From assembly GCA_965371015.1 (NCBI GenBank), contig CBDUWU010000001.1, positions 1,368 to 65,367 of the forward strand: a stretch of 64,000 bases of DNA. Direction: 5' to 3'. Made by a program: the position numbers and the translations under genes. Below, one piece after another: positions 6,175 through 40,261 of the stretch. Under the pieces are notes generated by a model. It had not been told where the DNA came from. It was given only the letters and a program-made list of their open reading frames with translations, and did no database searches. The stretch is from an uncultured bacterium (lineage in GTDB: Bacteria > Krumholzibacteriota > Krumholzibacteriia > WVZY01 > JAKEHA01). Each line of letters opens with the position of its first letter. Within the stretch, counting starts at the first letter, position 1.

Positions 6175-6176
6175 CC

Positions 6177-7550: not shown

Positions 7551-7582
7551 GTCCCGCCCGGGCGCTGACGAGAACAAAAAAA

Positions 7583-7610: not shown

Positions 7611-7631
7611 GTTAATTCTTCGAGCGGTCGG

Positions 7632-7937: not shown

Positions 7938-8003
7938 TTCGTACTCCTTTACCCATGATGATGATTAGTAATTGAAAGATTCTATGGTCGCGGGACCCGC
8001 CCG

Positions 8004-8444: not shown

Positions 8445-8475
8445 CGTGGTAGTCCTTGGAACAACTATACAGAAA

Positions 8476-20157: not shown

Positions 20158-22846
20158 CAATAAGCAAACGGGTGCCGGGCGATTCGCCGTCGACCGGCTG
20201 GTGAAGGACTATCTCGAATTTTTCCGCGCGCGGAAACACGAAGTCGTTTCCAGTGCACCTCTTCTGCCCGAAGATCCCACGCTGCTTTTCACCGCGGCCG
20301 GGATGGTGCCCTTCAAGTCGTTCTACAGCGCCCCCGACAAAGCCCCGTATCGGCGCGCCGCTTCTGTGCAGAAGTGCCTTCGCGCTGGCGGGAAGCAGAG
20401 CGATCTCGAGAACGTCGGCCGGACACTGCGGCATCACACGTTTTTCGAGATGCTGGGCAACTTCAGCTTCGGCGACTATTTCAAGAAGGAAGCGATCGAG
20501 TGGGGGTGGGAACTCTCCGTAGACGTGTGGGGGCTCGACGTCGAGCGTATGTGGATCAGCGTGTTCCAGGACGACGACGAAGCGTTCGACCTGTGGGCGA
20601 AACATATCGGCTTTCCCGCCGATCGCATCGTGCGCATGGGCAGGGAAGACAATTTCTGGGGCCCGGTAGGTGACACCGGCGTCTGCGGCCCGTCGTCGGA
20701 GATGTACTACGACACCGGCCGCGGGGGCGAAGACGGCTCCCGGCTCGGTGACCCCGGGACCGAAGACCGTTTCATCGAGTACTGGAATCTGGTTTTTCCG
20801 CAGTTTTTCTACACGGAATCGGGTAGCTACGACGACCTGCCGCGGCCCGGTATCGACACGGGACTCGGCCTCGAACGCACGGCGTTCATTCTCCAGGAAG
20901 CGCCCGACAGCTATCACACCGATGAATTCCTCCCGATCCGCGACGCGGTCGCGCGAGCGCTGCCCGACGAGGTGACCCGGGAAAAGGCGGGACTCGCCCT
21001 CAACGTGGCTTCCGATCACGTTCGCGCGCTGACTTTCGCCCTGTCCGAAGGCATCATGCCGTCCAACGAGGGACGCGGGTACGTCCTGCGCCGTCTCCTT
21101 CGCCGCGCGCTCACCAAGATGCAGCCGTTCGGAGTCAAGGAACCGTTTCTCGCCCCCGCCGTGGACGTCGTGATCGGGAAGATGGGTGGACGGTATCCCG
21201 AGCTTCTGGGACGCGGTGACTTTATCAAGGAGATCATCACCGCCGAGGAAGAACGATTTCTGTCGACACTCGAGCAGGGTATGAGCAAGCTCGGATCGGT
21301 CCTCGACAAGGCGGCGGGCAAAGGGGGGGGGCGAGTCGACGGCGGCGACGCATTCGTGCTCTACGACACGTTCGGGTTTCCCCTCGAACTCACCGAAGAA
21401 CTGGCCGAAGACAGGGGGCTCGCCGTCGAGCGTGCCGGATTCGAGGCGGCCATGGCGAAGCAGAAAGAACGCGCGCGCCGCAGCAGTTTTCATTCCGCGT
21501 CACCGGAAATCGACACGGAGTTTGTCGAGTTCGACACCCCCGGGGGGGGGCCGACTGTGTTCGAAGGATACGAAAACGTGTCCTGCGAAGCGACGTTGTG
21601 TGCGTATCGCGTGCAAGACGACGCGGAAAACGGCGATGCGTGCAGGGTGGATCTCATCACCGACCGCACCGTGTTCTACGCCGAGAGCGGCGGTCAGGTC
21701 GGGGACACCGGCACGGCGGAAATCGGCGGCAAGCGACTCGACGTCGTCGATGCGCGCCACGATGGCGACCGGGTGGTGCACTCGGTGGTCTGGCCGCGAA
21801 GCGACAAAGCCGGGCCCGGCGACATTGCTGCGTTCCTCGGTGACAACCGCAACGTCTCGCTGTCCGTGGACGTCGAAATGCGCCTGGCGACGATGAGAAA
21901 CCATACGGCGACGCACCTGCTGCACGCGGCGCTGCGAACGGTTCTCGGAGATCACGTTGCCCAGGCAGGGTCGCTGGTCGCGCCCGACCGCCTGCGGTTC
22001 GATTTTCACCACTACCAGGCGATGACGGACGATCAGGTCTCAGAGGTGGAACGTATCGTGAACGACGCTGTCATGGCCGACATGGACGTCAGCCGCAGAA
22101 CCATGTCGTACAAGGACGCGGTCGCCGCCGGGGCGATGGCGCTCTTCGGCGAGAAGTATGGAGATGCCGTCCGCGTGGTGTCGGTTGATGATTTTTCCAT
22201 GGAGCTATGCGGCGGCACTCATCTCGACCGCACGGGCGAGATCGGGTCCTTTCTCATAAGGCAGGAATCCGCCGTCGGCGCCGGCATCCGCCGCGTCGAG
22301 GCGCTGAGCGGCCGGGGCGCCCTCGACTACACCAAGGGCGTATTGAACGATCGCCGCCGCGTCGCCGACCTGCTGCGAGTCGGTCCCGACGAGGTGGCGA
22401 ACAAGGTTCGTGCGCTGGTCGAGGAGTCCGAGTCACTACAGCGCCAGCTCAAAAAAGACGCAGCCCGCCGTGCCAGGGACGAGGCGGCCGAGGCCGTCGA
22501 AGGGGCCACACAAGCCGGGGGAGTGACATTCGTGGCCACCATCGTAGACGCGCCGGACGTGGACAGCCTGCGCAAATATGGAGACGAGTTGCGCAACAAG
22601 ATCGGCGACGGAATAGCGCTCGTGTGCCAGGATAAACGCGAAAAGCCGGTGGTACTGATCGTTGTCTCCGATGGCGTTATCAAGAACCGGTCGATCGACG
22701 CATCGGAAATCACGAAGTGGATCGCCGGCGAATTTTCGTATCGTGGTGGCGGCAAGCCCCACATGGCCCAGGTCGGAATTCCGGATAAGGAAGCTTTTGC
22801 CGGACTCCGCGACTTTGTGAAGAGCCGGCTCGAGAGCCAGACCTGA
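20141..22846 (+). CDS. alaS: alanine--tRNA ligase
   Basis: 901 aa; class II aaRS core (FTAAGMVPFK, FEMLGNFSFGDYFK), editing-domain motif HTATHLLHAAL and CGGTH, C-terminal DHHA1-like domain. Confidence 0.95.
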   Translation: MTTNPDNKQTGAGRFAVDRLVKDYLEFFRARKHEVVSSAPLLPEDPTLLFTAAGMVPFKSFYSAPDKAPYRRAASVQKCLRAGGKQSDLENVGRTLRHHTFFEMLGNFSFGDYFKKEAIEWGWELSVDVWGLDVERMWISVFQDDDEAFDLWAKHIGFPADRIVRMGREDNFWGPVGDTGVCGPSSEMYYDTGRGGEDGSRLGDPGTEDRFIEYWNLVFPQFFYTESGSYDDLPRPGIDTGLGLERTAFILQEAPDSYHTDEFLPIRDAVARALPDEVTREKAGLALNVASDHVRALTFALSEGIMPSNEGRGYVLRRLLRRALTKMQPFGVKEPFLAPAVDVVIGKMGGRYPELLGRGDFIKEIITAEEERFLSTLEQGMSKLGSVLDKAAGKGGGRVDGGDAFVLYDTFGFPLELTEELAEDRGLAVERAGFEAAMAKQKERARRSSFHSASPEIDTEFVEFDTPGGGPTVFEGYENVSCEATLCAYRVQDDAENGDACRVDLITDRTVFYAESGGQVGDTGTAEIGGKRLDVVDARHDGDRVVHSVVWPRSDKAGPGDIAAFLGDNRNVSLSVDVEMRLATMRNHTATHLLHAALRTVLGDHVAQAGSLVAPDRLRFDFHHYQAMTDDQVSEVERIVNDAVMADMDVSRRTMSYKDAVAAGAMALFGEKYGDAVRVVSVDDFSMELCGGTHLDRTGEIGSFLIRQESAVGAGIRRVEALSGRGALDYTKGVLNDRRRVADLLRVGPDEVANKVRALVEESESLQRQLKKDAARRARDEAAEAVEGATQAGGVTFVATIVDAPDVDSLRKYGDELRNKIGDGIALVCQDKREKPVVLIVVSDGVIKNRSIDASEITKWIAGEFSYRGGGKPHMAQVGIPDKEAFAGLRDFVKSRLESQT

Positions 22847-22892: not shown

Positions 22893-24395
22893 ATGTTTCG
22901 CTTTACGATTTTGATCATCACCGCCGCCGTGTTTGTTTCGGCAGCCGTGGCGCCACTCGCCGCGCAGCGGTCGCGGGACCGCTCGACGACGGCGAGCCGC
23001 AAAGCCGACACCGACGCCGAAGAGCTCATAGACCAGCAGCAGGATCTGCTCGAGCAGCAGGCCGCGCGGCTGCAGCCGGAGGGACTCGACGCACCGGTCG
23101 ACCCGGACACCTACGTGATTGGACCGGGCGACCAGTTCATTCTGGTACTGCGCGGTCAGGATCGGCGTGAGCTGAAGCTCCAGGTGCTGCCGGAGGGCAC
23201 GATCCTGCTTCCTAACTACGGCGCATTTATGGTGGCGGGAATGACGATCACCGAACTGCGAAACCGGCTCGGCGAATCATTGAAGAAATATTACAAAAAC
23301 ATCGAGTTCGACCTGCAGCTGGTTGTGCCCAGGGCGTTCGTCGTTTACGTTCTCGGCGAAGTGGAGATTCCGGGCGCGGTCCGTCTGCATGCGCCCTTTC
23401 GGGTGAGCTCGGCCATCGAAGCGGCCGGCGGCGTCAAGCGCAGGGGAAGCCGCCGGTTCATCGAAATCGTGGAAGACGGCGAGGCCGTTCGCCTGGTCGA
23501 CCTGGTCTCGTTTCTCAGCCTGGGGGACATCGAGGCCAATCCCGCGCTGAAAGAAAAGCAATCCGTTTATGTGCCGCCGATGCAGGCGTTCGCCCAGATC
23601 CACGGCGAAGTGTGGAACCGGGGTCCCTACGAGGTCAGGCCCGGAGAGACCATTGCCGACGTGATCCGCCTGGCTGGCGGGACGACGAGTTTTGCCGATC
23701 TCGACCGTGTCATCCTCGAGCGTCACAGCCCGACCGGATGGGCATCGATCGAACACTATACCTCGGCGGACCTCGACACCGTCGTCGTCGTCGACCGCGA
23801 CCAGATCGTGATACCCGACGCGCGTACGTTCGGCAGCGGCGACTACGTGCTCATCAGTGGCGGTGGGGGACGCGAGGGGAAGGTCTATATCGAAGAGGGG
23901 GAGACCATCGCCGATTTCACGCCGCGATTCTACCGGCTCATGGAAAATCACGACATCAGCCGCGCCGTCATTGAGCGGAGTTCGGATGACGGCACAGTCG
24001 AATACATAAAAGTCGATCTCGAGAAGGTCATCTCGGGCGAGGCGGACGGAAACATACTCCTCGAGGACCGGGACATCATCAGCATACCGAAGGCGGAATA
24101 TTTTGTGTACGTTGCCGGTGAGGTGACCGATCCGGGAGCGATCCCGTTTCAACGCGGCATGCCGGCGGAACGGTATATCGCCATGGCCGGCGGGCCGTCC
24201 CGCAACGGGAGTATGAACAAGCTGACAATTTTTGGCAAAGAAGGCACCAGCCGCAGCGGAGATCGCAACAGCACCGTTTACCGGGGTGACACGATTCTGC
24301 TCGAGCGAACCCTGACCAGCTACGTGGGACCAATATTCATCGGGCTGACCTCTCTCACAAGTCTGGTTCTTTCGGTTATCGCGGTGTCGAGGTAG
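22893..24395 (+). CDS. polysaccharide export protein, Wza/KpsD-like (Poly_export + SLBB domains) with C-terminal TM
   Basis: signal peptide; DTYVIGPGDQFILVL Poly_export motif; repeated beta-grasp SLBB-like segments; C-terminal hydrophobic helix. Confidence 0.75.
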   Translation: MFRFTILIITAAVFVSAAVAPLAAQRSRDRSTTASRKADTDAEELIDQQQDLLEQQAARLQPEGLDAPVDPDTYVIGPGDQFILVLRGQDRRELKLQVLPEGTILLPNYGAFMVAGMTITELRNRLGESLKKYYKNIEFDLQLVVPRAFVVYVLGEVEIPGAVRLHAPFRVSSAIEAAGGVKRRGSRRFIEIVEDGEAVRLVDLVSFLSLGDIEANPALKEKQSVYVPPMQAFAQIHGEVWNRGPYEVRPGETIADVIRLAGGTTSFADLDRVILERHSPTGWASIEHYTSADLDTVVVVDRDQIVIPDARTFGSGDYVLISGGGGREGKVYIEEGETIADFTPRFYRLMENHDISRAVIERSSDDGTVEYIKVDLEKVISGEADGNILLEDRDIISIPKAEYFVYVAGEVTDPGAIPFQRGMPAERYIAMAGGPSRNGSMNKLTIFGKEGTSRSGDRNSTVYRGDTILLERTLTSYVGPIFIGLTSLTSLVLSVIAVSR

Positions 24396-24423
24396 CATCA
24401 ACGAAGAAGGGATGTGATCGGTC

Positions 24424-25491
24424 ATCAAAGCGCTGATACTGGCAGGGGGTAAGGGCACCCGGCTGCGCCCGATCACGCACACGAGCGCCAAGCAGCTCGT
24501 ACCGGTGGCGAACAAACCGATACTGTTCTACGGCATCGAGGCGATACGCGACGCGGGAATCTCCGACATCGGTATCGTCGTCGGAGACACGGCACCGGAG
24601 GTAATGGACGCCGTCGGCGACGGATCCCGTTTCGGAGTCAGGGTGAAATACATACCACAGGAAGCACCGCTGGGATTGGCGCACGCAGTCAAGATATCGC
24701 GGGATTTCTTACTGGAAGATCCATTCGTCATGTATCTCGGCGACAACCTGCTCAGCGGCGGCATCAAGAGTTTTGTCGAGGACTTCGACCGGGGCGACTA
24801 CGACTCGCAGATCCTGCTGGCCCGGGTCAAGAACCCCAACGAATTCGGCGTCGCCGAGCTCGACGGAGGCCGTGTAGTCGGGTTGGAAGAAAAGCCCAAA
24901 AAGCCGAAGAGCGACTACGCGCTGGTCGGTGTGTACATGTTCACTTCCCGGATCTTCGAAGCGACCGCGAAAATCAAACCGAGCTGGCGCAACGAACTCG
25001 AAATCACCGACGCCATTCAATATTTGATCGACCAGAACTACGTCGTCAATTCACACGTCGTCGAGGGGTGGTGGAAGGATACCGGAAAGCTCGAAGACAT
25101 GCTCGACGCCAATCGTATGATTCTCACGGCGGCGCGGGCGACCAAGGTGGAGAGCGAGCAGTTCGAGGATTCGGAGTTTCACGGGCAGGTGCAGCTCGAC
25201 GAAGGGGTCACGGTGAAGAGGAGCGTGCTGCGCGGTCCCTGTATTGTCGGCGCCGGTTCGACAATCGTCGATTCGTACGTAGGGCCGTTCACCAGCGTCG
25301 GTCCCAGGACGCGAATCGAGAGCAGCGAGATCGAAAACAGTATCGTGATGGAAAACTGCACGATCACCGATATCAGCAGCCGCATCGGAGGAAGCCTGAT
25401 AGGAAAGAATGTAACGATCAATCGTTGCGTAAAGCCGCCGCGTAACTACGGTTTTATGGTCGGGGACAACAGCGAGATTACCGTCCTGTGA
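24424..25491 (+). CDS. sugar-1-phosphate nucleotidylyltransferase, long-form RmlA-like with C-terminal left-handed beta-helix; canonical start codon missing
   Basis: homology (KALILAGGKGTRLRPITHTSAKQLVPVANKP) begins at 24427, upstream of the first ATG (24505); in-frame TGA at 24415 leaves only ATC/CTG as possible starts; RBS GAAGGG at 24406. Confidence 0.65.
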   Translation: MKALILAGGKGTRLRPITHTSAKQLVPVANKPILFYGIEAIRDAGISDIGIVVGDTAPEVMDAVGDGSRFGVRVKYIPQEAPLGLAHAVKISRDFLLEDPFVMYLGDNLLSGGIKSFVEDFDRGDYDSQILLARVKNPNEFGVAELDGGRVVGLEEKPKKPKSDYALVGVYMFTSRIFEATAKIKPSWRNELEITDAIQYLIDQNYVVNSHVVEGWWKDTGKLEDMLDANRMILTAARATKVESEQFEDSEFHGQVQLDEGVTVKRSVLRGPCIVGAGSTIVDSYVGPFTSVGPRTRIESSEIENSIVMENCTITDISSRIGGSLIGKNVTINRCVKPPRNYGFMVGDNSEITVL

Positions 25492-25499
25492 GGTGAAGC

Positions 25500-26099
25500 T
25501 TGAACAGTATCGAAGACATTGACCTCAAAGCGCTCATCCTGTCGCGAAAGCGGCTGCTGGATTTCCTGAGCGAGGACGGCGCCGGGAATATCCGCGCCAT
25601 TGCGGCTGCGATGGCCCGGTGCCTCGACGATGGCGGCACCATATATGCCTGCGGCAACGGGGGGAGCGCGTCCCAGGCCGAGCATTTTTCCGCCGAACTG
25701 GTCGGGAGATTCTACCAGGACCGGCGCTCGCTGCCCGTTTACTCGCTGGCGGAAAACGGCGCCGTGTTGAGTTCGTTGGCCAACGACTATTCGTTCGAAC
25801 ACGTTTTTGCCCACCAGATTGCTGGTGTGGGCAGCGAGGGCGACTGCCTGCTCGCCCTGTCGACGAGCGGTAACTCCGAGAACGTCGTTCGGGCCTGCCG
25901 GGAGGCGAAGAAAAAAGGTATGCACGTTTTTTCGCTCACCGGTGAGGGGGGCGGTCGTGTCGCTCCCGAATCCGACATCGTCATCGCGGTTCCCGACACC
26001 GACACCGCAAGCGTCCAGGAGATTCACCTCCTCGTCGTCCACCTCATCTGCCAGCTGGTCGAGACGGCACTGTTTCGCGCGAAGGATGGAAAGCAGTAA
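25500..26099 (+). CDS. gmhA: D-sedoheptulose-7-phosphate isomerase (SIS domain)
   Basis: 199 aa; CGNGGSASQAEHF, ALSTSGNSENV SIS motifs typical of GmhA. Confidence 0.8.
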   Translation: MNSIEDIDLKALILSRKRLLDFLSEDGAGNIRAIAAAMARCLDDGGTIYACGNGGSASQAEHFSAELVGRFYQDRRSLPVYSLAENGAVLSSLANDYSFEHVFAHQIAGVGSEGDCLLALSTSGNSENVVRACREAKKKGMHVFSLTGEGGGRVAPESDIVIAVPDTDTASVQEIHLLVVHLICQLVETALFRAKDGKQ

Positions 26100-27234
26100 A
26101 CGCCCCAGATTGCTGTATCTCGTAACAGAGGACTGGTACTTCTGCTCGCACCGGCTCGCCCTCGGCCGTGCTGCCGTGCGGGCCGGTTACGACGTGACGG
26201 TCGCCACCCGTGTCCACAAGCACGCGCCGGCTATTACCGAAGCTGGAATGAACGTCGTGGCCCTGCCATGGAGCCGCCGGTCGACCCTCCCCTGGAACGA
26301 GCTCCGCACGCTGGCCTCGCTGTACAAACTTTACAGGAATTTCCGACCCGACCTGGTGCACCACGTTGCGCTCAAGCCGGTGTTCTACGGCTCGATGATT
26401 GCGCGAATCGCCCGCACCAGGCGGGTGATAAACGCCGTCGCCGGATTCGGATACAGCTTTGTCGCCTCCGGGGCGCGGGCGGCCTTGGCGCGCGGGATCC
26501 TCGACACGACTTTCCGGGTCCTCTGCAACCGTCCAGGCGCAAGAGTGCTGGTCCAGAACCCCGACGACGAGCGCGTTCTCGTGGAAGACGGCACGGTCGC
26601 CGCCGGCCGGGTGGTGGTCATCCCGGGGTCGGGGGTGGACACGGACCGGTTCGCGCCGGCCCCGGATGGTATGCCGGACGGCAGGGTGCGGGTTACGCTG
26701 GTGTCGCGCATGTTATGGTCGAAGGGAGTTGGCGAGTTCGTCGATGCGGCGCGGATCCTGCGCCGCCGGGGAATAGATTTCGAAGCGGTGCTCGTTGGAA
26801 GCCCGGATCCGGAAAACCCGCAGGCGATTCCGGAGGAAACGTTGCGGGGCTGGCGCGACGAAGGTGTCGTGGGCTGGCTTGGACACGTCGACGACGTTCC
26901 CTCGGTATGGGCCCGCTCGCACGTCGCCGTCCTTCCCAGTCACCGCGAGGGGTTGCCCAGAACACTCCTCGAAGCGGCCGCCTGCGGTGTGCCGATGGTC
27001 GCCACGGACGTCCCCGGTTGCCGTGAGGTCGTCGTCGACGACCGCAGCGGATTACTCGTGCCGGCGCGGGACGCTTCCGCCCTGGCCGACGCGATCGAAC
27101 GGCTCATATCAGAGCCCGCAACGCGGCGGGAGATGGGCCGGGCGGCTAGAGCCGATGCGGTAGAAAAATTCTCGGAGCCGGTCGTGATCGAAAAAATGCT
27201 GGCACTTTACCGCTCGATGCTGGAGGACGCGTGA
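26086..27234 (+). CDS. glycosyltransferase GT4 family
   Basis: PSHREGLPRTLLEAAACGVPMVATDVPGCREVVVDDRSGLLV (EX7E region); 383 aa; overlaps gmhA stop by 14 nt. Confidence 0.8.
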   Translation: MESSKRPRLLYLVTEDWYFCSHRLALGRAAVRAGYDVTVATRVHKHAPAITEAGMNVVALPWSRRSTLPWNELRTLASLYKLYRNFRPDLVHHVALKPVFYGSMIARIARTRRVINAVAGFGYSFVASGARAALARGILDTTFRVLCNRPGARVLVQNPDDERVLVEDGTVAAGRVVVIPGSGVDTDRFAPAPDGMPDGRVRVTLVSRMLWSKGVGEFVDAARILRRRGIDFEAVLVGSPDPENPQAIPEETLRGWRDEGVVGWLGHVDDVPSVWARSHVAVLPSHREGLPRTLLEAAACGVPMVATDVPGCREVVVDDRSGLLVPARDASALADAIERLISEPATRREMGRAARADAVEKFSEPVVIEKMLALYRSMLEDA

Positions 27235-28241
27235 ATGACGCCGCGGTCAAAACTAGTTTCTATGTCACCGGGGCATCCGGTTTTCTCGGCCGCCGTGTCT
27301 GCTCGAGGCTGGCGGCGCACGGGACGGTGCGGGCACTGATGAGGTCGGCGGTCGACGGGCCGTGGGACGCCGTCGACATGGTCGACCTGGCCAAAGACCC
27401 ACCACCGCCGGGCGCGCTCGCGGGCGTCGAAACCGTCATCCATCTGGCAGCACGCACGCACGCGGTCGATGAATCCGGCGATACCGAGGGACTGTACCGC
27501 GCTATCAACGTGGACGGCACCCGCCGCCTGCTCGAGGCCGCGAAGAGCGCCGGGGTCCGCCGATTCGTGTTTGTCAGCAGCGTCAAGGCGATGGGTGAGG
27601 GCGGGGACGGGGTGCAGGACGAGACGGCGACGCCGGTTCCCGCGACCTGGTACGGAAAGACCAAGCGCGCCGCCGAGACGATGGTGATGGACGGCTCCTG
27701 GCCCCACGAGGCCGTCGTGCTGAGGCCGGCATTGATGTACGGGAAAGGAGTGGCCGGGAACGTGGGACGGATGATCGAAGCGGTGCGGGCCGGGCGGTTT
27801 CCGCCGGTACCCGAGGTGGGCAATTCGCGCTCGATGGTTCATGGCGACGACGCGGCCCACGCCATCGTTCTCGCGGCGACCGGCGCGCGCGCCGCCGGCC
27901 GGTTGTTCATCGTAACCGATGGCCGGCCGTGTTCGACGCGGGAGATGTACGAATGGATATGCAAGGCGCTGGGGCAGACACCGCGGAGGCGGACACCGCC
28001 TCTGTCGATGTATCGCGGCCTGGCGAAAGTGGGCGACGTTCTGGGACGGCTCCGGGGCAGGCGCTGGATATTCGATTCGGAAGCGTTTGGCAAGCTCTTC
28101 GGGTCGGCCGCCTACGATTCGTCGGCGATCTGCCGCGAACTGGGTTTCGAGCCGAAGTGGACGTTCCGGACGGCTTTGCCGGAAATGGTTTCGGGCGCGA
28201 CGGAATCCGCTGCGACGGATTCTGCGGGACAAAGGGGGTAA
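27231..28241 (+). CDS. NAD-dependent epimerase/dehydratase (SDR family)
   Basis: VTGASGFLGRRV Rossmann motif, YGKTK catalytic Y-x3-K. Confidence 0.8.
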   Translation: MNDAAVKTSFYVTGASGFLGRRVCSRLAAHGTVRALMRSAVDGPWDAVDMVDLAKDPPPPGALAGVETVIHLAARTHAVDESGDTEGLYRAINVDGTRRLLEAAKSAGVRRFVFVSSVKAMGEGGDGVQDETATPVPATWYGKTKRAAETMVMDGSWPHEAVVLRPALMYGKGVAGNVGRMIEAVRAGRFPPVPEVGNSRSMVHGDDAAHAIVLAATGARAAGRLFIVTDGRPCSTREMYEWICKALGQTPRRRTPPLSMYRGLAKVGDVLGRLRGRRWIFDSEAFGKLFGSAAYDSSAICRELGFEPKWTFRTALPEMVSGATESAATDSAGQRG

Positions 28242-28247
28242 CCGGAA

Positions 28248-30149
28248 GTGTGCGGGATCGCCGGTATCGTCGTTCGTGAGGGATCGGTCGAGCCCTACCT
28301 CGAAAACCTCGACGATGCGGCGGCGAGGTTCGTCCATCGGGGACCCGACCACGGAGGGCGGTTCGTCGGGGGGCGCGCCGCGCTGGCGCACCGCAGGCTG
28401 GCCATCATCGACACGTCGCCGGCGGGTAACCAGCCGATGTCGGACGAGTCGGGGCGTTACACGATCGTTTACAACGGCGAGTTGTACAATTTTCGCGAAC
28501 TGCGGAATCAGTTGGCCGGTGAGGGCGTTGTGTTCGGGTCGGATTCGGATTCGGAAGTAATGCTCAAGCTGTTCATCGCCCGGGGGGCGGCGGCGCTCGA
28601 CGACGCAAACGGATTTTTCGCGTTTGCCGTATTCGATTCTGAGCGCCAGTCGCTGTTCGTTGCCCGCGACAGGTTCGGGATCAAACCGCTCTACTACTGT
28701 TCCACCGACTACGGTTTTATATTCGCCTCGGAACTCAGGTCTTTGCTCGCGTTCCCCGTCGAACGGCGGATCGACGACGTTTCGCTCTACCAGTACCTTC
28801 AGCTGAGCTATATTCCGGCCCCGCACACGATACTGAAAAACGTAAACAAGCTCGAACCAGGGTGCTGGCTCGAAACCGATGGCTCGGTACCGGAAATCCG
28901 GCGATACTATAGGCTCCCGCGCGACGGCGCGGCGGCGGCCGGTCCCGCCGTCACGTCTTACGACGACGCCGTCGCCCGAGTGCGATCGACGCTCGACGAT
29001 GCCGTAGGCATGCGGCTCGTCTCCGACGTCCCGCTGGGTGCCTTTCTCAGCGGCGGTATCGACTCGACGGTGATCGCCGCGCTGGCCGCGCGGCACACCG
29101 ACCGCCTCAAGACCTTTTCGATCGGATTCAGGGATAACGAGTTTTACGACGAAACGCCCGACGCCCTCGCGGCGGCGCGCGCGATCGACACCGACCATAC
29201 CGCGTTCCGGTTGACTTCGCAGAACCTGTTCGACCACCTGTACGACACTCTCGATCATCTCGACGAACCGTTCGCCGACTCGTCGGCGCTGGCGGTCAAC
29301 ATCCTCTCGATGCGCACGAGGGAGCACGTCAAGGTGGCTCTGTCCGGCGACGGCGCAGACGAACTGCTCGGTGGCTACAACAAACACTACGCTGATTACC
29401 GTGCGCGCCGGGGCGGGGCCGCGGTCGCGCTCGTGAAGGCGCTTTCGCCGTTGTGGAGCTTTTTGCCCGCGTCGCGCGACTCCGTCTTTTCGAACCGTGT
29501 CCGGCAACTCCGCCGTTTTTCGCAATCGGCCGGGTTGCCCGCCGGACGCCGGTACTGGGAGTGGTGCAAATTCACGTCGGGGGAACAGGCGCTCCGGGTT
29601 ATGACGGGCGAATCCGCTGCGACCGGCATGGACTACCGTCGCCGCGTCGAAGCTGCCGTTGAGGGGATTCGCGACGACGGCACTCTCAACGACGTGTTCC
29701 GTGCCGACGTCAGTCTGGTGCTGGCGAACGACATGTTGCGAAAGGTCGACTCTATGTCGATGGCGAATAGTCTGGAAGTCCGGGTTCCTTACCTCGACCA
29801 CCGTTTCGTAGAGCTGTGTTTCTCGCTGCCCGCCGGGTACAAGATCGGCGCGGGAGTGCGCAAGAAGATATTACGCGACGCCTTCGCCTCGATCATTCCC
29901 GCCCGGGCACTCGAAAAACCGAAACACGGGTTCGAGGTACCTCTTCTGCACTGGTTCAGGACGGGTCTGCGGCCGTTGATCGAGGACGACCTGCTTTCCG
30001 ACGATTTCGTCGCCGGCCAGGGCGTATTTGACCCCGCCGGCGTGGCGGCCCTCAGAAAGAGGCTGTTTTCGGCCCGGCCTGGCGACGTCGCACCGTTGGT
30101 GTGGGCACTGGTCGTATTCCAGCACTGGTGGCGAAAGTACATGGATTGA
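28248..30149 (+). CDS. asnB: asparagine synthase (glutamine-hydrolysing)-type amidotransferase, as found in O-antigen/EPS loci
   Basis: MCGIAG N-terminal nucleophile, SGGIDS PP-loop; 633 aa. Confidence 0.8.
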   Translation: MCGIAGIVVREGSVEPYLENLDDAAARFVHRGPDHGGRFVGGRAALAHRRLAIIDTSPAGNQPMSDESGRYTIVYNGELYNFRELRNQLAGEGVVFGSDSDSEVMLKLFIARGAAALDDANGFFAFAVFDSERQSLFVARDRFGIKPLYYCSTDYGFIFASELRSLLAFPVERRIDDVSLYQYLQLSYIPAPHTILKNVNKLEPGCWLETDGSVPEIRRYYRLPRDGAAAAGPAVTSYDDAVARVRSTLDDAVGMRLVSDVPLGAFLSGGIDSTVIAALAARHTDRLKTFSIGFRDNEFYDETPDALAAARAIDTDHTAFRLTSQNLFDHLYDTLDHLDEPFADSSALAVNILSMRTREHVKVALSGDGADELLGGYNKHYADYRARRGGAAVALVKALSPLWSFLPASRDSVFSNRVRQLRRFSQSAGLPAGRRYWEWCKFTSGEQALRVMTGESAATGMDYRRRVEAAVEGIRDDGTLNDVFRADVSLVLANDMLRKVDSMSMANSLEVRVPYLDHRFVELCFSLPAGYKIGAGVRKKILRDAFASIIPARALEKPKHGFEVPLLHWFRTGLRPLIEDDLLSDDFVAGQGVFDPAGVAALRKRLFSARPGDVAPLVWALVVFQHWWRKYMD

Positions 30150-30239
30150 GGCCGGTTGTGGTCCGTGCCGCCTCCGGAGAGTGATTTATTTTCTTGTCTT
30201 ACCGGCTGTGTCTACATATCCTGAAACATCCTCTGACGA

Positions 30240-30260
30240 CGCGGGAATACCGCGGGAATA
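30240..30260 (+). repeat. tandem direct repeat CGCGGGAATA(c)CGCGGGAATA upstream of the phosphotransferase fusion gene
   Basis: two 10-bp units spaced by 1 nt, 26 nt upstream of the GTG start at 30286. Confidence 0.5.
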
Positions 30261-30285
30261 TTAATGAAACCGAGGGACTGACGAC

Positions 30286-33123
30286 GTGACCGCACTGGTT
30301 TGCTTTCTGATCGCTTTCGGAGTGTCGTATCTGGGCACCCTCGGGCTGCTGCGCATCCCCATGGTGAGGGGCTTTATCGACGTTCCCAACGAGCGAAGTT
30401 CGCACGAGGCGCCCAAATCCAGGATCGGCGGCGTTGCCATCGTGGTCTCGTTCTACGCGGCGCTCGTGTGGTTGTGGGTGTCACAACCGGAGACTCGGGT
30501 ATTTATGCCGCTGGCCGTCGGGTCCGCGATGCTGTTTCTCACCGGCCTGATCGATGACTGGCGCGGGCTCGGCGTAAAAATCAAGTTTGCCATGCAGATC
30601 GTCGCGGCGATTACGGTAGTGTCGTTCGGGGTCTCGATCGACCACATATACATACCGGCCGCCGGGAGCGTGGAACTGGGCTGGACCGGTATTCCGATCA
30701 CCGTTCTGTTCATCGTCGGAAGCATTAACTTCTACAACTTCATAGACGGTATCGACGGGCTGGCCGCGGGCAGCGCGTTTATCGCGGCGGGGTTTCTGGC
30801 GCTGATCTCCATGACGCTGGGGCACTCGGCACTCGCGCTGGTACTTGTCGCGGCAGCCGGCAGTTCCATCGGCTTTTTACAGTTCAATTTTCCCCCGTCA
30901 AAATTGTTCATGGGTGACAGCGGAAGCACATTTCTCGGCTTCTTTTTTGCGTATACCGCCGTCGCGGCCAACGGGCTGACGCCCGAGCTTCCGGTGTTCA
31001 TTCCGGTTCTGATCCTGTCGTCGCTCTACCTCGACGCGGGGTTGACCCTGTTCAACCGCCTGATCAAGCGTGAAAACATATTCAAAGCGCACCATACTCA
31101 CTATTACCAGAGGCTCCTCTCGCTCGGGTTGAATCACAAACAGGTCACGCTGCTCGAGTACCTGGTGCTCATCCTTCTTGGTGTAAGCGCTGTCGTTTAC
31201 TTCAAGGCGGGCGAGTATTTTCCCGTGTTTATAAGCGCGTGCTGGATCACGCTTTTTACGCTGGCCATTTTGAAGATCCGTGGCCTGGAACGCGGCGACA
31301 AGCTGTTCTGGGAAAAGCGCACTTTGTTCGTCATCGGCCTCGATCTGGTACTGATCACGGTGGCGTACCTGGGTGCGTATTTCATGAGGATGAATTTCCG
31401 CTTCACCGATCCGGAAGGCACGGCGGTTCTGCGCGCGCTTCCGATCGTGCTGATCGTTCGAAGCGCCGTGTTCCACAAACTGGGCTTGTACCGGAGCGTG
31501 TACAAGTACACGAGCACGGCGGACATCGTGCGAATACTCAAGGCGGTCACGATGGGGTCGGCCATCATTCTGACCACCGTTGTCCTGCTCTACCGTTTTG
31601 TCTCGTTTCCGAGAACGCTGTTCATAATCGAATTTTTTCTGCTGACGCTGCTCATCCTCGGGTCGAGATTCTCTTTCCGCCTGTTCCACGAGATCGGCAA
31701 GGAAGCGCACGGCGCCAACGTGAAGCGATACGGGATTGTCGGCGCTGGAGACTTCGGAGAACGGGTCGCGCGCGAGCTGCGTAACGACAGCACCCGGACG
31801 ACAGTGGTGTCCTGTTTTATCGACGACGCCCCGGGCAAGATCGGGATGACGCTGCACGGAGCGCCGATCGTGGGGCCGGTCGACACCCTGGAGGCGATCG
31901 TGGCGAAGTACAAACTGGACGCGATCGTCGTGGGAATCGCCCGTCTCGACCAATACAGGATGGAACAGATTGCCGGGGCTGCCCGGGCCGCGGGGGTGGC
32001 GCTGGAGGGCCGTCAGAGCTCGTTGAAAAAGGATCCCGTTCGACCGGACGAGTTGTTCGAGAAGCTCGCACACGGGATCGGAAGGACCCGCGCCTGCGAC
32101 GTGGGGACGCCGTCCCGCGTATTTTATCGCGGCAAACGTGTGCTGCTCACCGGCGGCGGCGGACCATCCGGCCCGGCGTTAGCCCGCAAGCTGTCTGAAC
32201 TCGGCGCGGTGGTAACCGTGCAGACCGATTCGCCTCACGACGCCAGCAGATTCAACGCGGACCTGCGGAAGGACGTGTTCGTCCACATGGGACCGCCGGT
32301 GGGACCCGAAGGCTGGAAGAGCCTCTTCGACTCCGCCCGGCCCGACGTGGTGTTCTACTGCCTTGCCCTCGAAGTGCCGGCCGACTCGTACTCGGAGTCC
32401 TTCCTGTGGCACGCTTCGGTTTCGACGACGGTGGACCTGATGTCCGCCGTTGCCGGCTCGAGCGTATCTTCACTCGTGATGGTTTCGAATCGTGGAGCTG
32501 GGGCGCAACGAACCGCCGCGGATGCGGCTGCGGTCGCCGAAGCCATATTGCTCAACGGTGTGCTCCCGGACACTGTCGTACCACAGGTGATCCGATTGCC
32601 CCGGGTACTGGATTCGGGCGATCTCCTCGACGTGTTCAACGCGTGGTCGGGCGCAGCGCCGGGCCCAGACACCGGATACGACGTGCTCGAGCCCGAAGCA
32701 GTGGCGGTCGTGCTTGACACCGCGGCTTCCGGCCCGGGTCGCGTCATTGTCGTGCCCCAGTGGAGCGGTTCGTTTTCGGCGGTGGACGCGGAATCGATCC
32801 TCAACGGCAGGCCGGGCCCCGGAAGGACGGATCAATGGGATCGCATCGATCGCAACGCAGGCCCGTTGTATCCGGCTGAAGCCATCGCGGGGCCCCCGAC
32901 ACCGGGTGCGATACGATCGGTCGCCGGGGTCGCCGTCGTGACCCCCCTCTGTCCCGCCGATGAAACCGTCGCGGCCGCCCTGGCCAGCGACCCGCCCGAC
33001 GCCACCGGGGACGAGCGGATCAGGTGGATGGAAGCGGCGACTGCGTCGCTGTATCGTGACTCGGCCTCCGGCGCTGATACCGCCCCTGAGGCGGACTCCA
33101 CCCGCGAGAAGGAGCGGTTGTGA
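30286..33123 (+). CDS. fusion protein: polyprenyl-phosphate sugar-1-phosphate transferase (WecA/MraY GT4 family) + CapD/WbpM-like membrane/Rossmann region with degenerate SDR domain + Ala/Pro-rich C-terminal tail
   Basis: aa 1-330 carry the MraY/WecA motifs DDWRGL, NFIDGIDGLA, MGDSGSTFLGF; aa 340-470 have four more TM helices followed by YGIVGAGDFGERVAREL, as in CapD/PglF; aa 560-760 contain VLLTGGGGPSGPALARKL but no clear Y-x3-K catalytic motif. Confidence 0.75.
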   Translation: MTALVCFLIAFGVSYLGTLGLLRIPMVRGFIDVPNERSSHEAPKSRIGGVAIVVSFYAALVWLWVSQPETRVFMPLAVGSAMLFLTGLIDDWRGLGVKIKFAMQIVAAITVVSFGVSIDHIYIPAAGSVELGWTGIPITVLFIVGSINFYNFIDGIDGLAAGSAFIAAGFLALISMTLGHSALALVLVAAAGSSIGFLQFNFPPSKLFMGDSGSTFLGFFFAYTAVAANGLTPELPVFIPVLILSSLYLDAGLTLFNRLIKRENIFKAHHTHYYQRLLSLGLNHKQVTLLEYLVLILLGVSAVVYFKAGEYFPVFISACWITLFTLAILKIRGLERGDKLFWEKRTLFVIGLDLVLITVAYLGAYFMRMNFRFTDPEGTAVLRALPIVLIVRSAVFHKLGLYRSVYKYTSTADIVRILKAVTMGSAIILTTVVLLYRFVSFPRTLFIIEFFLLTLLILGSRFSFRLFHEIGKEAHGANVKRYGIVGAGDFGERVARELRNDSTRTTVVSCFIDDAPGKIGMTLHGAPIVGPVDTLEAIVAKYKLDAIVVGIARLDQYRMEQIAGAARAAGVALEGRQSSLKKDPVRPDELFEKLAHGIGRTRACDVGTPSRVFYRGKRVLLTGGGGPSGPALARKLSELGAVVTVQTDSPHDASRFNADLRKDVFVHMGPPVGPEGWKSLFDSARPDVVFYCLALEVPADSYSESFLWHASVSTTVDLMSAVAGSSVSSLVMVSNRGAGAQRTAADAAAVAEAILLNGVLPDTVVPQVIRLPRVLDSGDLLDVFNAWSGAAPGPDTGYDVLEPEAVAVVLDTAASGPGRVIVVPQWSGSFSAVDAESILNGRPGPGRTDQWDRIDRNAGPLYPAEAIAGPPTPGAIRSVAGVAVVTPLCPADETVAAALASDPPDATGDERIRWMEAATASLYRDSASGADTAPEADSTREKERL

Positions 33124-34013
33124 AACAGTTCTTCTTTGTACTTCAGTCGATGCGGCCCGGCCAGTGGACCAAAAACCTCGTGGTGTTTGCCGGACTCGTC
33201 TTCTCGCAAAACCTTTTTGATCGCCAGCTCGCCGCCAAGAGCGTCGAAGCTTTTGTCGTGTTCTGCCTGTTGTCGGGGATGATCTATCTCGTCAACGACA
33301 TAGCCGATATCGAGCGTGACAAGCTCCACGCCCGCAAGAAGCACCGTGCGCTGCCCTCCGGGCGCCTCAAACTATCGACGGCGGTGGTTGCGTCGATCGT
33401 CGGAACACTGGCCGGCCTCTATCTCGCCTGGCTGGTTGGGCGCGAGTTTTTTGTCGTCGCCGTCGTGTTCTTTGCGTTGAACATGCTATACTCGTTCGTC
33501 ATCAAGCGTATTGTGCTTCTCGACGTGATGAGCATTTCGATCAGTTTCATACTGCGCGCGATCGGGGGAGTGGAAGCCCTGCGCAGTCTGGAGCCGTCGA
33601 TCGAGATATCGCCTTGGCTCTTGATCTGCACCCTGTTCCTTTCCCTGTTTCTCGGGTTCTGCAAACGACGGCACGAGCTGGTCACCCTGTCCAACGCCCA
33701 CCAGCACCGGCGGTCTCTGCGGGAATATTCGCCGGCGCTGCTCGACCAACTCGTTGGAATCACCGCAGGCGGGTCAGTGCTCGCGTACGCGATATACACA
33801 ATCTGGCCCGACACCGTGGACAATTTCGGCTCGACGGACCTGGTTTATACAGTGCCGCTGGTTCTGCTCGGCGTCATGCGCTACCTTTACCTGGTCTACA
33901 CCCAGCAGAAGGGCGGAAGCCCCTCCGAGCTCCTCCTCCACGAGAAATTCCTGCTGGTCACGGTTGTCACGTGGGGCGCTCTGGTGATTGTGTTGTTGGG
34001 TGGATTCAGGTAA
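33120..34013 (+). CDS. UbiA-family prenyltransferase, decaprenyl-phosphate phosphoribosyltransferase (DPPR synthase)-like
   Basis: RPGQWTKNLVVFAGLVFS and YLVNDIADIERDKLHARKKHRALPSG resemble Rv3806c-type DPPR synthases (from memory); 8-9 TM helices. Confidence 0.7.
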   Translation: MKQFFFVLQSMRPGQWTKNLVVFAGLVFSQNLFDRQLAAKSVEAFVVFCLLSGMIYLVNDIADIERDKLHARKKHRALPSGRLKLSTAVVASIVGTLAGLYLAWLVGREFFVVAVVFFALNMLYSFVIKRIVLLDVMSISISFILRAIGGVEALRSLEPSIEISPWLLICTLFLSLFLGFCKRRHELVTLSNAHQHRRSLREYSPALLDQLVGITAGGSVLAYAIYTIWPDTVDNFGSTDLVYTVPLVLLGVMRYLYLVYTQQKGGSPSELLLHEKFLLVTVVTWGALVIVLLGGFR

Positions 34014-34021
34014 AATCATCA

Positions 34022-34038
34022 CCCCCCCCCCGGGGGGG
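34022..34038. repeat. C10-G7 homopolymer pair (self-complementary) in the UbiA-DUF362 intergenic region
   Basis: atcaCCCCCCCCCCGGGGGGGattcac located 9 nt after the UbiA stop and ~25 nt before the DUF362 RBS. Confidence 0.9.
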
Positions 34039-34072
34039 ATTCACACCATCTTGTAAACGAGCGAGGAGATCA

Positions 34073-35179
34073 ATGGCATCCAGAGTAGCCGTTTTGTTCA
34101 CGACTCCCGAGACCGTCCTTGCGGACTACCAGAAAGTAATGGAGCTGGCGTGCTGGACAGAGACGCTCACGGGGGAGAGGGAACTACTCCTTAAGTTGAA
34201 CCTCTCCTGGACAAAGTATTTCCCCTCGTGTTCCAGTCAGCCGTGGCAGGTGGAAGGCGTCGTAAAGACGCTTCTGGAGGGGCACTACACGCCGGAGACG
34301 GTGATTCCCGTCGAGAACAAAACCGTAGTGACCAATCCCCGAAAGGGGGCCAGGAACAACCTGTGGATGCCCGTGCTGGACGAGTACGGGTGCCGTTTCC
34401 AACCGCTGACAGAGATCGAGTGGAAGGTTCACCGCTTCGAGGCGGATCTACTGAAACTCAATGACATCTTTCCCGAGGGCATCGAGATCCCGTCGATCTA
34501 CGAGGGCAGAGACATTCTGCACCTGCCGACGGTGAAGACCCACGGACATTCCATCACCACAGGCGCGATCAAGAACGCGTTCGGGGGATTACTCAAGGAA
34601 GTGCGGCACTACGCCCACAAATATATTCACGAATTAATGGTCGAGCTGCTGCTGCTGCCGCGCGAGCTTCAGCCCACCGTGGTCGCCTTTAGGGCCGGCA
34701 CGGGGGCCGGCGCCGGCGCCGGGCCCCGGACGATGATCCCGAGGATTCAGAATGTCATCCTGGCCAGTTCCGACTCGGTTGCGATCGACGCGGTGGCGGC
34801 GAAAATGATGGGGTACGACCCGTTGGAAATTCCGTATCTGCGCATGGCAACGGAGATGGGTCTGGGTGAAGGCCGAATCGGGCACATCGAGATCGCGGGG
34901 GAACCGATCGACAATATCAACTTTCACTTCCAGACCCGGAAAAGTCTGGTGATCTGGGGCGACCAGATGTTGCGTCTGGGCCCGCTGCGGTTCCTGGAGA
35001 AGTTGTTACTCCACTCACCGCTCATGGTGTGGGCGCCTTTCGCGTCGAACGTGTATCACGACTACATGTGGTACCCGACGGTCGGCGCCAGACGCATCCG
35101 GGAGTTCTCACGCACCCCCTGGGGCGAGTTGTTCGAACGGTATAAGAAATTACCACGAAACGAACCGGACGGCGGTTGA
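34073..35179 (+). CDS. DUF362-like protein (uncharacterised, Fe-S-cluster-associated family)
   Basis: 368 aa; GGAG RBS 5 nt upstream; family call from memory of DUF362; internal low-complexity AGTGAGAGAGP. Confidence 0.5.
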   Translation: MASRVAVLFTTPETVLADYQKVMELACWTETLTGERELLLKLNLSWTKYFPSCSSQPWQVEGVVKTLLEGHYTPETVIPVENKTVVTNPRKGARNNLWMPVLDEYGCRFQPLTEIEWKVHRFEADLLKLNDIFPEGIEIPSIYEGRDILHLPTVKTHGHSITTGAIKNAFGGLLKEVRHYAHKYIHELMVELLLLPRELQPTVVAFRAGTGAGAGAGPRTMIPRIQNVILASSDSVAIDAVAAKMMGYDPLEIPYLRMATEMGLGEGRIGHIEIAGEPIDNINFHFQTRKSLVIWGDQMLRLGPLRFLEKLLLHSPLMVWAPFASNVYHDYMWYPTVGARRIREFSRTPWGELFERYKKLPRNEPDGG

Positions 35180-35182
35180 GTC

Positions 35183-36091
35183 ATGCCCCTGAACGCCTCA
35201 CGAGCTCGAAACGTACGCGCCATAACGCGGGCGAAGGTCAACCTTTCTCTCGAGGTCATCCGGCGCCGGGGCGACGGCTTCCACGAGATCGAAACGATCT
35301 TCCAGTCGATCAGTATGGCGGACGAACTTGATATCAAGTGGAACGGCGATGGAGTGATCGAGATTTCGTGCTCCGATCCGGGCATTCCGGTCGATGCGAC
35401 TAACCTCTGCCACCGGGCCATAGCGGCGATGCGCCGTCACGCCGGGGAGGATCTCGGAGCGCGGATCCACATAGAAAAGCGGATTCCGTCTTCGGCCGGC
35501 CTCGGGGGCGGCAGCGCCAACGCCGCCGGAGTGATTCTCGCCGTGGACCAGGCGCTGAAACTGCGGCTCCCCGTGGGGAAACTCGAGGCCGTGGCAGCAG
35601 GGCTCGGTAGTGATATTCCATTTATGCTCCACGGAGGGACAATGCTCGGGCGTGGCAGGGGCGAAATACTGACCCGGCTCGACGAAATGAAAGAGTGTTA
35701 TTTCACTATAGTGAAACCCCCGGTAAGTATTTCGACAGCTTGGGTTTATGAGAATATCAATTTGGCGTTGACAAAGCACAAGCCGCGGATTAACCTGAGA
35801 ACGGTAAATGCCGTTCTGGCAAGGTTTCCCGGGGTTACTGCGTCGTTCCGGAACGCGTTGGAAGATGTTGTTTGCCCGACCCATCCGGTCGTCTCCGGGA
35901 TCCTGGACGAATTGCTGGCGACGCGGCCGAGTTTTGCCTCGATGTCGGGAAGCGGCTCTGCTCTGTACGCCATTTATGACAACGAAGCGCAAGCAGTCGA
36001 GACAGCTGAGCGGTTTTCGGTGAAAGAGTTCTTTTGCTCTGTAGCCACTCCAGCGAAGCGAGCGGTAGAAATCTCTGAATTAGAGGGATGA
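35183..36091 (+). CDS. ispE: 4-diphosphocytidyl-2-C-methyl-D-erythritol kinase
   Basis: KVNLSLEV N-terminal motif, GHMP kinase motif IPSSAGLGGGSANAA. Confidence 0.85.
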   Translation: MPLNASRARNVRAITRAKVNLSLEVIRRRGDGFHEIETIFQSISMADELDIKWNGDGVIEISCSDPGIPVDATNLCHRAIAAMRRHAGEDLGARIHIEKRIPSSAGLGGGSANAAGVILAVDQALKLRLPVGKLEAVAAGLGSDIPFMLHGGTMLGRGRGEILTRLDEMKECYFTIVKPPVSISTAWVYENINLALTKHKPRINLRTVNAVLARFPGVTASFRNALEDVVCPTHPVVSGILDELLATRPSFASMSGSGSALYAIYDNEAQAVETAERFSVKEFFCSVATPAKRAVEISELEG

Positions 36092-40203: not shown

Positions 40204-40261
40204 CCGGAGGCGCCGGCCTCTGTATCCGGCCGGTGCGCAAATTCAGCCTGGGGGTAAAACC

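Follow-up and report, generated by a model that had tools for sequence, protein, structure and literature searches.

We identified a predicted cell-surface glycan locus of nine genes in a 64,000-nucleotide stretch of genomic DNA (hereafter the window; contig CBDUWU010000001.1 of assembly GCA_965371015.1) from an uncultured bacterium of the Krumholzibacteriota. The genes are co-directional, lie tightly packed on the + strand at 22893-35179 and encode, in order, a Wza-like exporter, a long-form RmlA-type nucleotidyltransferase, a GmhA-like protein of the SIS family, a GT4-family glycosyltransferase, a short-chain dehydrogenase/reductase (SDR), an AsnB-type amidotransferase, a WecA-type fusion protein, a UbiA-superfamily phosphoribosyltransferase and a DUF362 protein. 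We interpret this interval as an operon-like, vertically inherited cell-surface glycan cluster of a diderm bacterium of the Krumholzibacteria/Latescibacteria lineage, an interpretation to which we assign a probability of roughly 0.6. The main new features are a fusion enzyme that, within the search made, is limited to this lineage, and a conserved unusual start codon in the nucleotidyltransferase gene.

Profile searches of the encoded proteins with Pfam and NCBIfam recovered all nine families, with E-values from 1e-12 to 1e-135, in agreement with a preliminary description of this DNA that had named the same nine products. That description had also reported neither Wzx/Wzy nor an ABC exporter, and the searches likewise detected no Wzx, Wzy, polysaccharide copolymerase (PCP) or ABC exporter inside 22893-35179. 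Curated cut-offs are passed by the long-form RmlA, AsnB and decaprenyl-phosphate phosphoribosyltransferase models, which supports a surface-glycan operon, as do the nearly invariant motifs of the initiating transferase, the full-length alignment of the UbiA-type enzyme with Mycobacterium tuberculosis Rv3806c, the tight spacing, the overlapping stop and start codons, the host-like base composition and the conserved gene order. The intergenic gaps range from -14 to 136 nt, and the GC content at third codon positions (GC3) is 0.76-0.80 in the locus genes vs 0.77 in the adjoining alaS. Promoter and terminator scans gave chance-level hits only. A diderm envelope fits the organism, because TonB and YfiO-like lipoprotein genes are encoded in the window and because lipopolysaccharide (LPS) genes and a Gram-negative envelope have been described in a genome analysis of Latescibacteria (PMC4454575).

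Conservation of the locus

For comparison, we used the DNA around UbiA homologues of 68-94% identity, which comprised three near-identical contigs with a UbiA protein 68% identical to that of the window (L003-L005) and four further contigs (L006, L007, L010 and L011), and, in addition, the complete Latescibacterota genome CP070677.1, represented by two pieces (L008 and L009). The order alaS-Wza-nucleotidyltransferase-SIS-GT4-SDR-fusion-UbiA-ispE-spoVG-prs is kept in L003-L007, L010 and L011, and, with CP070677.1 counted in, eight related contigs in all keep the locus order; the recurrence of the same order in eight related contigs places the cluster far beyond chance. The Wza-like gene directly follows alaS in L003, L006, L007 and L008, that is, wherever the sequence reaches that far upstream, and is the first gene ahead of the nucleotidyltransferase in L005, L010 and L011. 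In the window, the upstream side of the locus is recA-recX-alaS (alaS at 20141-22846, +; TIGR00344, 799 bits), and the downstream side is ispE-spoVG-tRNA-Gln-prs-L25-pth (ispE at 35183-36091, +; TIGR00154, 208 vs a cut-off of 139), with no break between the locus and the downstream genes. Synteny holds even where UbiA differs by as much as 32% and the fusion protein by as much as 56%, Latescibacterota included. Judged from gene order, the locus is thus a vertically inherited core-genome feature of the Krumholzibacteria/Latescibacteria lineage, embedded in housekeeping genes.

The varying elements are limited to three. The window, L010 and L011 carry the AsnB gene, which L003-L008 lack; a second glycosyltransferase gene is found in L003-L007 and L011; and DUF362 is absent from its locus position in L006. 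Variation confined to these three genes is as expected for a glycan locus whose product is decorated differently from strain to strain.

In CP070677.1, the locus lies in two parts ~45 kb apart on opposite strands, and the break falls inside the fusion gene: residues 7-696 are encoded at L008 10001-12094, and the last ~190 residues at L009 8443-8997, directly upstream of UbiA (tblastn with the C-termini of two fusion homologues, E ~1e-14). The N-terminal piece is labelled as partial by NCBI. As read from these coordinates, the break reflects either an inversion or a misassembly within the fusion gene, and the ancestral arrangement is contiguous. We considered the split as a sign of two independent modules and rejected this, since the break falls within a gene.

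For UbiA, the fusion protein and DUF362, the named close homologues come from metagenome-assembled genomes (MAGs) carrying the NCBI names Candidatus Krumholzibacteria or Latescibacterota, the two exceptions being MAGs of unclassified bacteria. To our knowledge, neither Krumholzibacteria nor Latescibacteria have cultured members, and our literature searches found no study of their cell surface glycans. The locus could serve as a fixed, easily recognised marker of a conserved envelope glycan in both groups.

Fusion protein

The 945-aa fusion protein (30286-33123, +) carries, at residues ~1-340, a WecA/MraY-type polyprenyl-phosphate N-acetylhexosamine (HexNAc)-1-phosphate transferase (PNPT) domain (PF00953, 137 bits), followed by four transmembrane (TM) helices and a CoA_binding_3 Rossmann domain (38.6 bits) at residues ~341-575 and by a PglF-like SDR domain at residues ~600-850 (Epimerase, 21 bits). 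The PNPT motifs DD, NxxNxxDGIDGL, FMGDxGS and the His-rich HxH are nearly invariant over 33 fusion homologues. The score against the WecA equivalog TIGR02380 is 102 vs a cut-off of 326, so that specificity for UDP-GlcNAc is not implied.

Residues 341-945 were modelled with AlphaFold using the 33-sequence alignment (mean confidence, pLDDT, 83), and the model contains four TM helices, one Rossmann domain and a second SDR-like domain. Its best Foldseek match is Campylobacter jejuni PglF (5BJU), a UDP-GlcNAc 4,6-dehydratase (E 1.2e-9), and a profile of the C-terminal domain likewise finds PglF first (9.5e-15 to 2e-14 over five PglF sequences); PF02719 was undetected in the protein by the Pfam search. 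The iSTDKAV and MGcTKR stretches of PglF face the non-conserved family consensus vsfWega and aaklaa, which read SNRG and AADAAA in the window, and of the PglF-like motifs only the glycine-rich nucleotide-binding loop TxGGGxIG is kept in the family. Sequence and model thus identify the protein as a WecA-type initiator fused to a PglF-like domain in which the catalytic residues of PglF have been lost. This domain is probably not a dehydratase, given the family-wide loss of the Thr-Asp-Lys and M/YxxxK residues, and it may still bind a nucleotide.

We found 314 homologues of the fusion protein; the named ones among the best 120 are all from Krumholzibacteria or Latescibacteria, and nearly all are labelled hypothetical protein by NCBI. 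A search of genome contigs with the fusion protein returned distant matches only, at 36% and 24% identity, and other phyla encode the two halves separately. Within the homologue search made, the fusion enzyme therefore appears in this lineage only. PNPT initiators are paired with membrane-bound UDP-GlcNAc 4,6-dehydratases in several known systems, such as WbpL/WbpM of Pseudomonas aeruginosa, WreU/WreV of Rhizobium etli and PglF of C. jejuni. The present locus shares with these the combination of a WecA-family phosphotransferase and a four-TM/CoA_binding_3/SDR protein, but here both types form one chain of 945 aa, and its SDR domain lacks Thr-Asp-Lys and MxxxK. A natural fusion of a WecA-type initiator with a PglF-like domain bereft of the PglF catalytic residues is a lead worth following.

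UbiA-type enzyme

The 297-aa UbiA-superfamily protein (33120-34013, +) scored 258.6 vs a cut-off of 234 with NF008977 (decaprenyl-phosphate phosphoribosyltransferase), and at most 39 bits with the UbiA, MenA-type, CyoE (heme) and ChlG (chlorophyll) prenyltransferase models. Its best match in the Protein Data Bank (PDB) is Rv3806c (8J8J; E 2.5e-27, residues 7-289), and the next family follows at 4.6e-5. The Asp-rich loop II motif NDxxDxxxD is kept (YLVNDIADIERD opposite YLVNDVRDVEAD of Rv3806c), as is the R..E motif of loop IV (KRRHEL opposite KRYAEL; KRxxEL). The Asn and Asp residues of NDxxDxxxD are required in Citrobacter ORF15 (Kelly et al. 2024, PMC11127046), and the loop II and loop IV R..E residues are important in polyprenyl-phosphoribose synthase (PPPRS) enzymes (PMC11127046). 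Orthologues of the protein are named decaprenyl-phosphate phosphoribosyltransferase by NCBI. By sequence, this is an enzyme of the decaprenylphosphoryl-5-phosphoribose (DPPR) synthase/PPPRS type and not a quinone prenyltransferase; the preliminary description had called it DPPR-synthase-like and had set grouping with MenA/UbiA as the test beforehand, and its assignment held.

PPPRS enzymes are widespread in Gram-negative glycan loci, where they act with a 5-phosphatase, a flippase and a GT-C transferase, joined in some cases by an SDR epimerase (PMC11127046). The 297-aa protein has no HAD domain (HAD-UbiA model NF006088, 174 vs 351), profile searches found no phosphatase gene in 22893-36091, and neither the locus nor the 10 kb on each side of it in L003-L007, L010 and L011 encodes a flippase, a GT-C transferase or a phosphatase. 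In CP070677.1, a PMT_2 gene is found at a distance of 7 kb from UbiA. The locus resembles the Citrobacter youngae O1/O2 ORF15-ORF14-ORF12 system (PMC11127046) and the Rv3806c pathway in its UbiA-fold phosphoribosyltransferase with NDxxDxxxD, and the Citrobacter system also in the placement of the synthase in a diderm glycan locus that includes an SDR gene (cf. ORF13). In contrast to both, UbiA here has neither a fused HAD phosphatase nor a PAP2 neighbour, the locus contains no MATE/SMR flippase, no GT136 or other GT-C transferase and no DprE1/E2, and UbiA is translationally coupled to the PNPT fusion and usually followed by DUF362. The UbiA start overlaps the fusion-gene stop by 4 nt in the window, an overlap common to most related loci in which both genes are called intact, the exception being L011, where the genes are 19 nt apart. 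A polyprenyl-phosphoribose synthase encoded without its usual partners in the locus is a second lead.

Elsewhere in the window, an open reading frame (ORF) at 611-2602 (+) encodes a 663-aa protein with ~10 TM helices, a soluble domain of ~230 aa and a final helix. It has an invariant Asp (YxDNPxH) right after helix 1 and no Pfam match of its own; 11 of the 28 members of its family match PTPS_related (best E 1e-13) and three match YfhO. From these features the protein is GT-C-like and, ~30 kb upstream of UbiA, could be a candidate polyprenyl-phospho-sugar-dependent transferase partner for that enzyme. Adjoining it at 2735-7550 (+) are genes for an ABC ATPase, for an ABC-2 permease whose chain also carries a GldG-like auxiliary domain and for a DUF4340 protein, and a further GT4 gene lies on the opposite strand at 8476-9579 (-). 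The genes at 2735-9579, which lie 13-20 kb upstream of the locus, may be a second cluster, serving either an envelope glycan or gliding-type transport. Near the other end of the window, 60753-63875 (+) encodes a methyltransferase, a GT4 enzyme and a 10-TM protein that passes the flippase-like model TIGR00374 (64 vs 43; Pfam LPG_synthase_TM), possibly another lipid-linked sugar module.

Nucleotidyltransferase and its start codon

The mechanically predicted ORF of the sugar-1-phosphate nucleotidyltransferase begins at GTG 24505 and lacks the GGxGTRL loop, and LAGGKGTRLRP is encoded in frame just upstream, after a TGA codon. Read from ATC 24424, the gene (24424-25491, +) encodes 355 aa and matches TIGR01208 (rmlA_long) at profile positions 1-352 with 461.8 bits vs a cut-off of 320.25; the ORF truncated at 24505 scores 409.6 bits, and the full-length match that includes the N-terminal GGxGTRL loop is obtained only from ATC 24424. 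A left-handed beta-helix tail follows the NTP_transferase domain. The HddC model NF049965 gives 46.7 vs a cut-off of 300, and the best PDB match is RmlA (2e-49), with HddC structures at 3e-13. By these comparisons the enzyme is clearly long-form RmlA-like, not HddC-like.

ATC stands at the Met position, with a Shine-Dalgarno-like GGAAGG or GGAGGG 6-10 nt ahead of it, in all eight sequences that cover the site (start region 24415-24426 in the window; L003 2419, L005 1099, L006 2382, L007 2013, L008 5753, L010 1309 and L011 130). An in-frame stop lies 3-10 codons upstream in six of the eight (the window, L006, L007, L008, L010 and L011). Between this stop and ATC, there is no ATG, GTG or TTG in the window, L007, L008, L010 and L011, so that in these five no canonical start can precede the G-loop; L006 has a TTG there. 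The aligned sequences thus indicate that the gene is read from a conserved non-canonical ATC start. The gene calls on record are mostly 328-341 aa long and lack the catalytic G-loop, one is over-extended to 361 aa, and that of CP070677.1 begins at ATC. Automatic calls thus mostly miss this start, and the database entries show a shortened enzyme that looks dead. We also considered whether the gene is a truncated or frameshifted pseudogene and rejected this, the missing N-terminus being present in frame and ATC standing at the Met position throughout.

Another nucleotide-sugar supplier lies 5 kb downstream of the locus in fixed synteny with it: a mannose-1-phosphate guanylyltransferase-like gene at 40130-41335 (+; TIGR01479, 341 vs 373), which also follows S6-S18-L9 in L003, L006, L007, L010 and L011; in L004 and L005, the sequence ends earlier.

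Exporter, glycosyltransferase and modifying enzymes

The Wza-like protein (22893-24395, +; 500 aa) belongs to the OPX family of outer-membrane polysaccharide exporters, matching Poly_export with 47.7, SLBB with 98.8 and SLBB_2 with 71.1 bits; the EpsE, pepcterm and Wza equivalog models all stay below their cut-offs. Hydrophobic segments at residues 1-25 and 477-500 correspond to a signal peptide, which lacks a lipobox Cys, and to a C-terminal helix. Neither the interval nor the other window ORFs scanned yielded a PCP partner (Wzc/KpsE). An exporter with Poly_export and SLBB domains and a C-terminal helix is shared with Wza/OPX loci, such as the Escherichia coli group 1 capsule and PEP-CTERM/EpsE-type exopolysaccharide (EPS) loci, and XrtA/PEP-CTERM EPS loci likewise encode GT4 enzymes and an AsnB-like amidotransferase. 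The present locus differs from Wza/OPX loci in that no Wzc/PCP, Wzx or Wzy is encoded beside the exporter, the exporter is not a lipoprotein and the locus is fixed in the core genome.

The GT4-family glycosyltransferase (26086-27234, +) matches Glyco_trans_1_4, Glycos_transf_1 and Glyco_trans_4_2 with 113.5, 108.2 and 60.5 bits, respectively. Its start is most likely ATG 26086, which overlaps the end of the gmhA-like gene by 14 nt and gives a product of 382 aa, the length of the L010 orthologue. The SDR (27231-28241, +; 336 aa) is an extended, NAD-dependent epimerase/reductase type protein (Epimerase, 111.7 bits; 3Beta_HSD, 90.3 bits), in the translation of which the TGxxGxxG and YxxxK motifs are intact. 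No NCBIfam model scores above its cut-off, the best being OleD and HpnA; the best PDB match is 3WJ7 (1e-15), and MoeE5 and GalE-like proteins match too. The AsnB-type glutamine-dependent amidotransferase (28248-30149, +; 633 aa) matches Asn_synthase with 302 and GATase_7 with 142 bits, passes TIGR01536 (451 vs 267) and stays below the XrtA amidotransferase model (435 vs 817). Its presence and absence among relatives fits a putative role as a glycan modifier.

The DUF362 protein (34073-35179, +; 368 aa; PF04015, 68.7 bits) is the most conserved protein of the locus, with 73-86% identity across the lineage vs 44-69% for the fusion protein. A structure-database search, profile search included, found no solved relative, and Foldseek gave no significant match, with LarA-type racemases at E 0.05-0.13 from a poor model (pLDDT 54). 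DUF362 shares Pfam clan CL0471 with the N-terminal domain of LarA (PMC11770544). Half of the differences between the window protein and its closest orthologue fall into one 27-residue stretch at residues ~187-213 (34631-34711), where the near-invariant EVMVDLLLMQRELHPNVFAVMDGTVAGDG reads ELMVELLLLPRELQPTVVAFRAGTGAGAG, with no frameshift. Assembly P0374 encodes an otherwise identical DUF362 protein with the canonical sequence at this stretch, which is why the variant is probably an assembly artefact or a rare variant.

GmhA-like protein

The SIS protein (25500-26099, +; 199 aa; SIS_2, 95 bits) remains below the cut-off of every GmhA model that it matches (195 vs 276 for NF010546, 179.4 vs 209.45 for TIGR00441, and 153.6 vs 265 and 142 vs 320 for two others), and the DiaA model, at 131 bits, scores lower than all four. 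Its 13 top PDB matches are all GmhA (E 1e-43 to 5e-37), DiaA comes next at 5e-35, and no model or chain of a KpsF-type arabinose-5-phosphate isomerase is among its profile and PDB matches. The H..E (aeHfsaEl) and Q..H..H (vQEiHllvvH) residues align with those of GmhA, which are the metal-binding and catalytic positions in the E. coli and Burkholderia pseudomallei structures. From sequence and structure matches the protein is best called GmhA-like, and its grouping with GmhA rather than with DiaA/KpsF is as the preliminary description had expected.

Proposed pathway and alternative explanations

From the family assignments, the motifs and the gene order with its small variable cassette, we infer the substrates, the sequence of steps and how the modules connect as follows. 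The WecA-type domain of the fusion protein would start the glycan by transferring HexNAc-1-phosphate onto polyprenyl phosphate on the inner side of the cytoplasmic membrane, and one or two GT4-type transferases would extend it from nucleotide sugars. The long-form RmlA would supply dTDP- or UDP-hexose, and the GmhA-like protein perhaps heptose-7-phosphate, for which further enzymes encoded elsewhere would be needed. The SDR and, in some strains, the AsnB-type amidotransferase would modify a sugar, the likely case being amidation of a uronic acid. From phosphoribosyl pyrophosphate, UbiA would form polyprenyl-phospho-ribofuranose-5-phosphate, the entry to lipid-linked pentofuranose donors used by GT-C transferases outside the cytoplasm, and the Wza-like protein would take the product across the outer membrane. 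A flippase, a polymerase or chain-length regulator, a 5-phosphatase and a GT-C transferase would be encoded outside the locus.

Several points weigh against this interpretation. With no flippase, Wzy, PCP, ABC exporter, phosphoribose phosphatase or GT-C transferase in the interval, no single complete pathway can be read from it. The matches of the GmhA-like, Wza-like, WecA-type and SDR proteins are all below NCBIfam equivalog cut-offs and do not fix the substrates. Gene order beside housekeeping genes could reflect inheritance and not one shared product, and the members of the lineage are known here from sequence only. The GmhA-like protein may serve LPS-core heptose, a plainer role to which the GT9 heptosyltransferase encoded in CP070677.1 points.

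The main competing explanation is that separate envelope-precursor functions were kept together by descent and do not build one polymer, with the GmhA-like protein serving the LPS core, the long-form RmlA acting as a general supplier of NDP-hexose, and UbiA and DUF362 forming an independent lipid-linked pentose module beside ispE and prs. The location of the cluster among housekeeping genes, into which it runs unbroken, would be accounted for in this way, as would the GT9 heptosyltransferase and an MsbA-like ABC protein in CP070677.1 and the lack of partner genes tying the modules together; the far stronger conservation of DUF362 than of the fusion protein also suggests different constraint. 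However, UbiA and the fusion gene overlap in most related loci, the sole apparent separation of the modules is the break inside the fusion gene of CP070677.1, and a single glycan pathway is what a Wza exporter encoded together with a PNPT initiator and GT4 enzymes normally indicates. We regard separate functions as a serious but distinctly less probable explanation. Acquisition of the interval by horizontal transfer, as one of the usual variable O-antigen or capsule islands, would agree with the mosaic gene content, typical of islands, and with the tRNA-Gln gene 1.3 kb downstream of the locus end. It is contradicted by a GC3 equal to that of alaS and by the same position and order in contigs as divergent as those compared here, and no integrase or repeats were noticed; we rejected this explanation as extremely improbable.

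The preliminary description had further proposed that GmhA next to a nucleotidyltransferase suggests an activated heptose. The two genes are 8 nt apart in the window and are neighbours in all related loci, and HddC belongs to the same PF00483 superfamily as the nucleotidyltransferase, so one could imagine a new NDP-heptose route in which the long-form enzyme replaces HddC or HldE. Clusters for GDP-D-glycero-alpha-D-manno-heptose have the composition GmhA-HddA-GmhB-HddC in Aneurinibacillus, Campylobacter and Yersinia. Like them, the present locus places a GmhA-type gene beside a PF00483 nucleotidyltransferase, but here this enzyme is of the RmlA-long type, by a wide margin in both profile and structure comparisons, and the kinase and phosphatase are not in the locus. 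No HldE/HddA kinase, GmhB phosphatase or HddC/HldC was found among the window ORFs scanned; the GHMP kinase gene after DUF362 (35183-36091) was considered as a candidate HddA and rejected, as it passes the IspE cut-off. The proposal of an activated heptose is thus weak, with adjacency as its sole basis, and we consider the new route improbable.

The same description had held that the polymer cannot be predicted from known paradigms. This was too strong, as the parts map to PNPT initiation, OPX export and the PPPRS pentofuranose system (PMC11127046). What it had missed were the lineage-wide, housekeeping-embedded operon, the degenerate PglF-like fusion partner, the variable AsnB cassette and the conserved ATC start. 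The cluster itself is real, but each part fits a known scheme, PPPRS enzymes in Gram-negative glycan loci having been described already in 2024, and current models of glycan assembly are not overturned by it. As a bolder and improbable proposal, the fusion of PNPT and pseudo-PglF, UbiA and DUF362 might constitute a lineage-specific membrane machine that makes lipid-linked pentofuranose without a HAD/PAP2 phosphatase or DprE1/E2. The missing phosphatase or epimerase would then be DUF362, which is related to the LarA racemase fold, and the product would be an essential envelope polymer of Krumholzibacteria and Latescibacteria and not a decorative side chain.

Other features of the window

A gene for SelA (selenocysteine synthase) lies at 48186-49610 (+), from which the organism probably uses selenocysteine. 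A large-type bacterial signal recognition particle RNA is encoded at 11416-11680, and a flavin mononucleotide (FMN) riboswitch at 55937-56062 lies upstream of an unannotated ORF (56235-57404).

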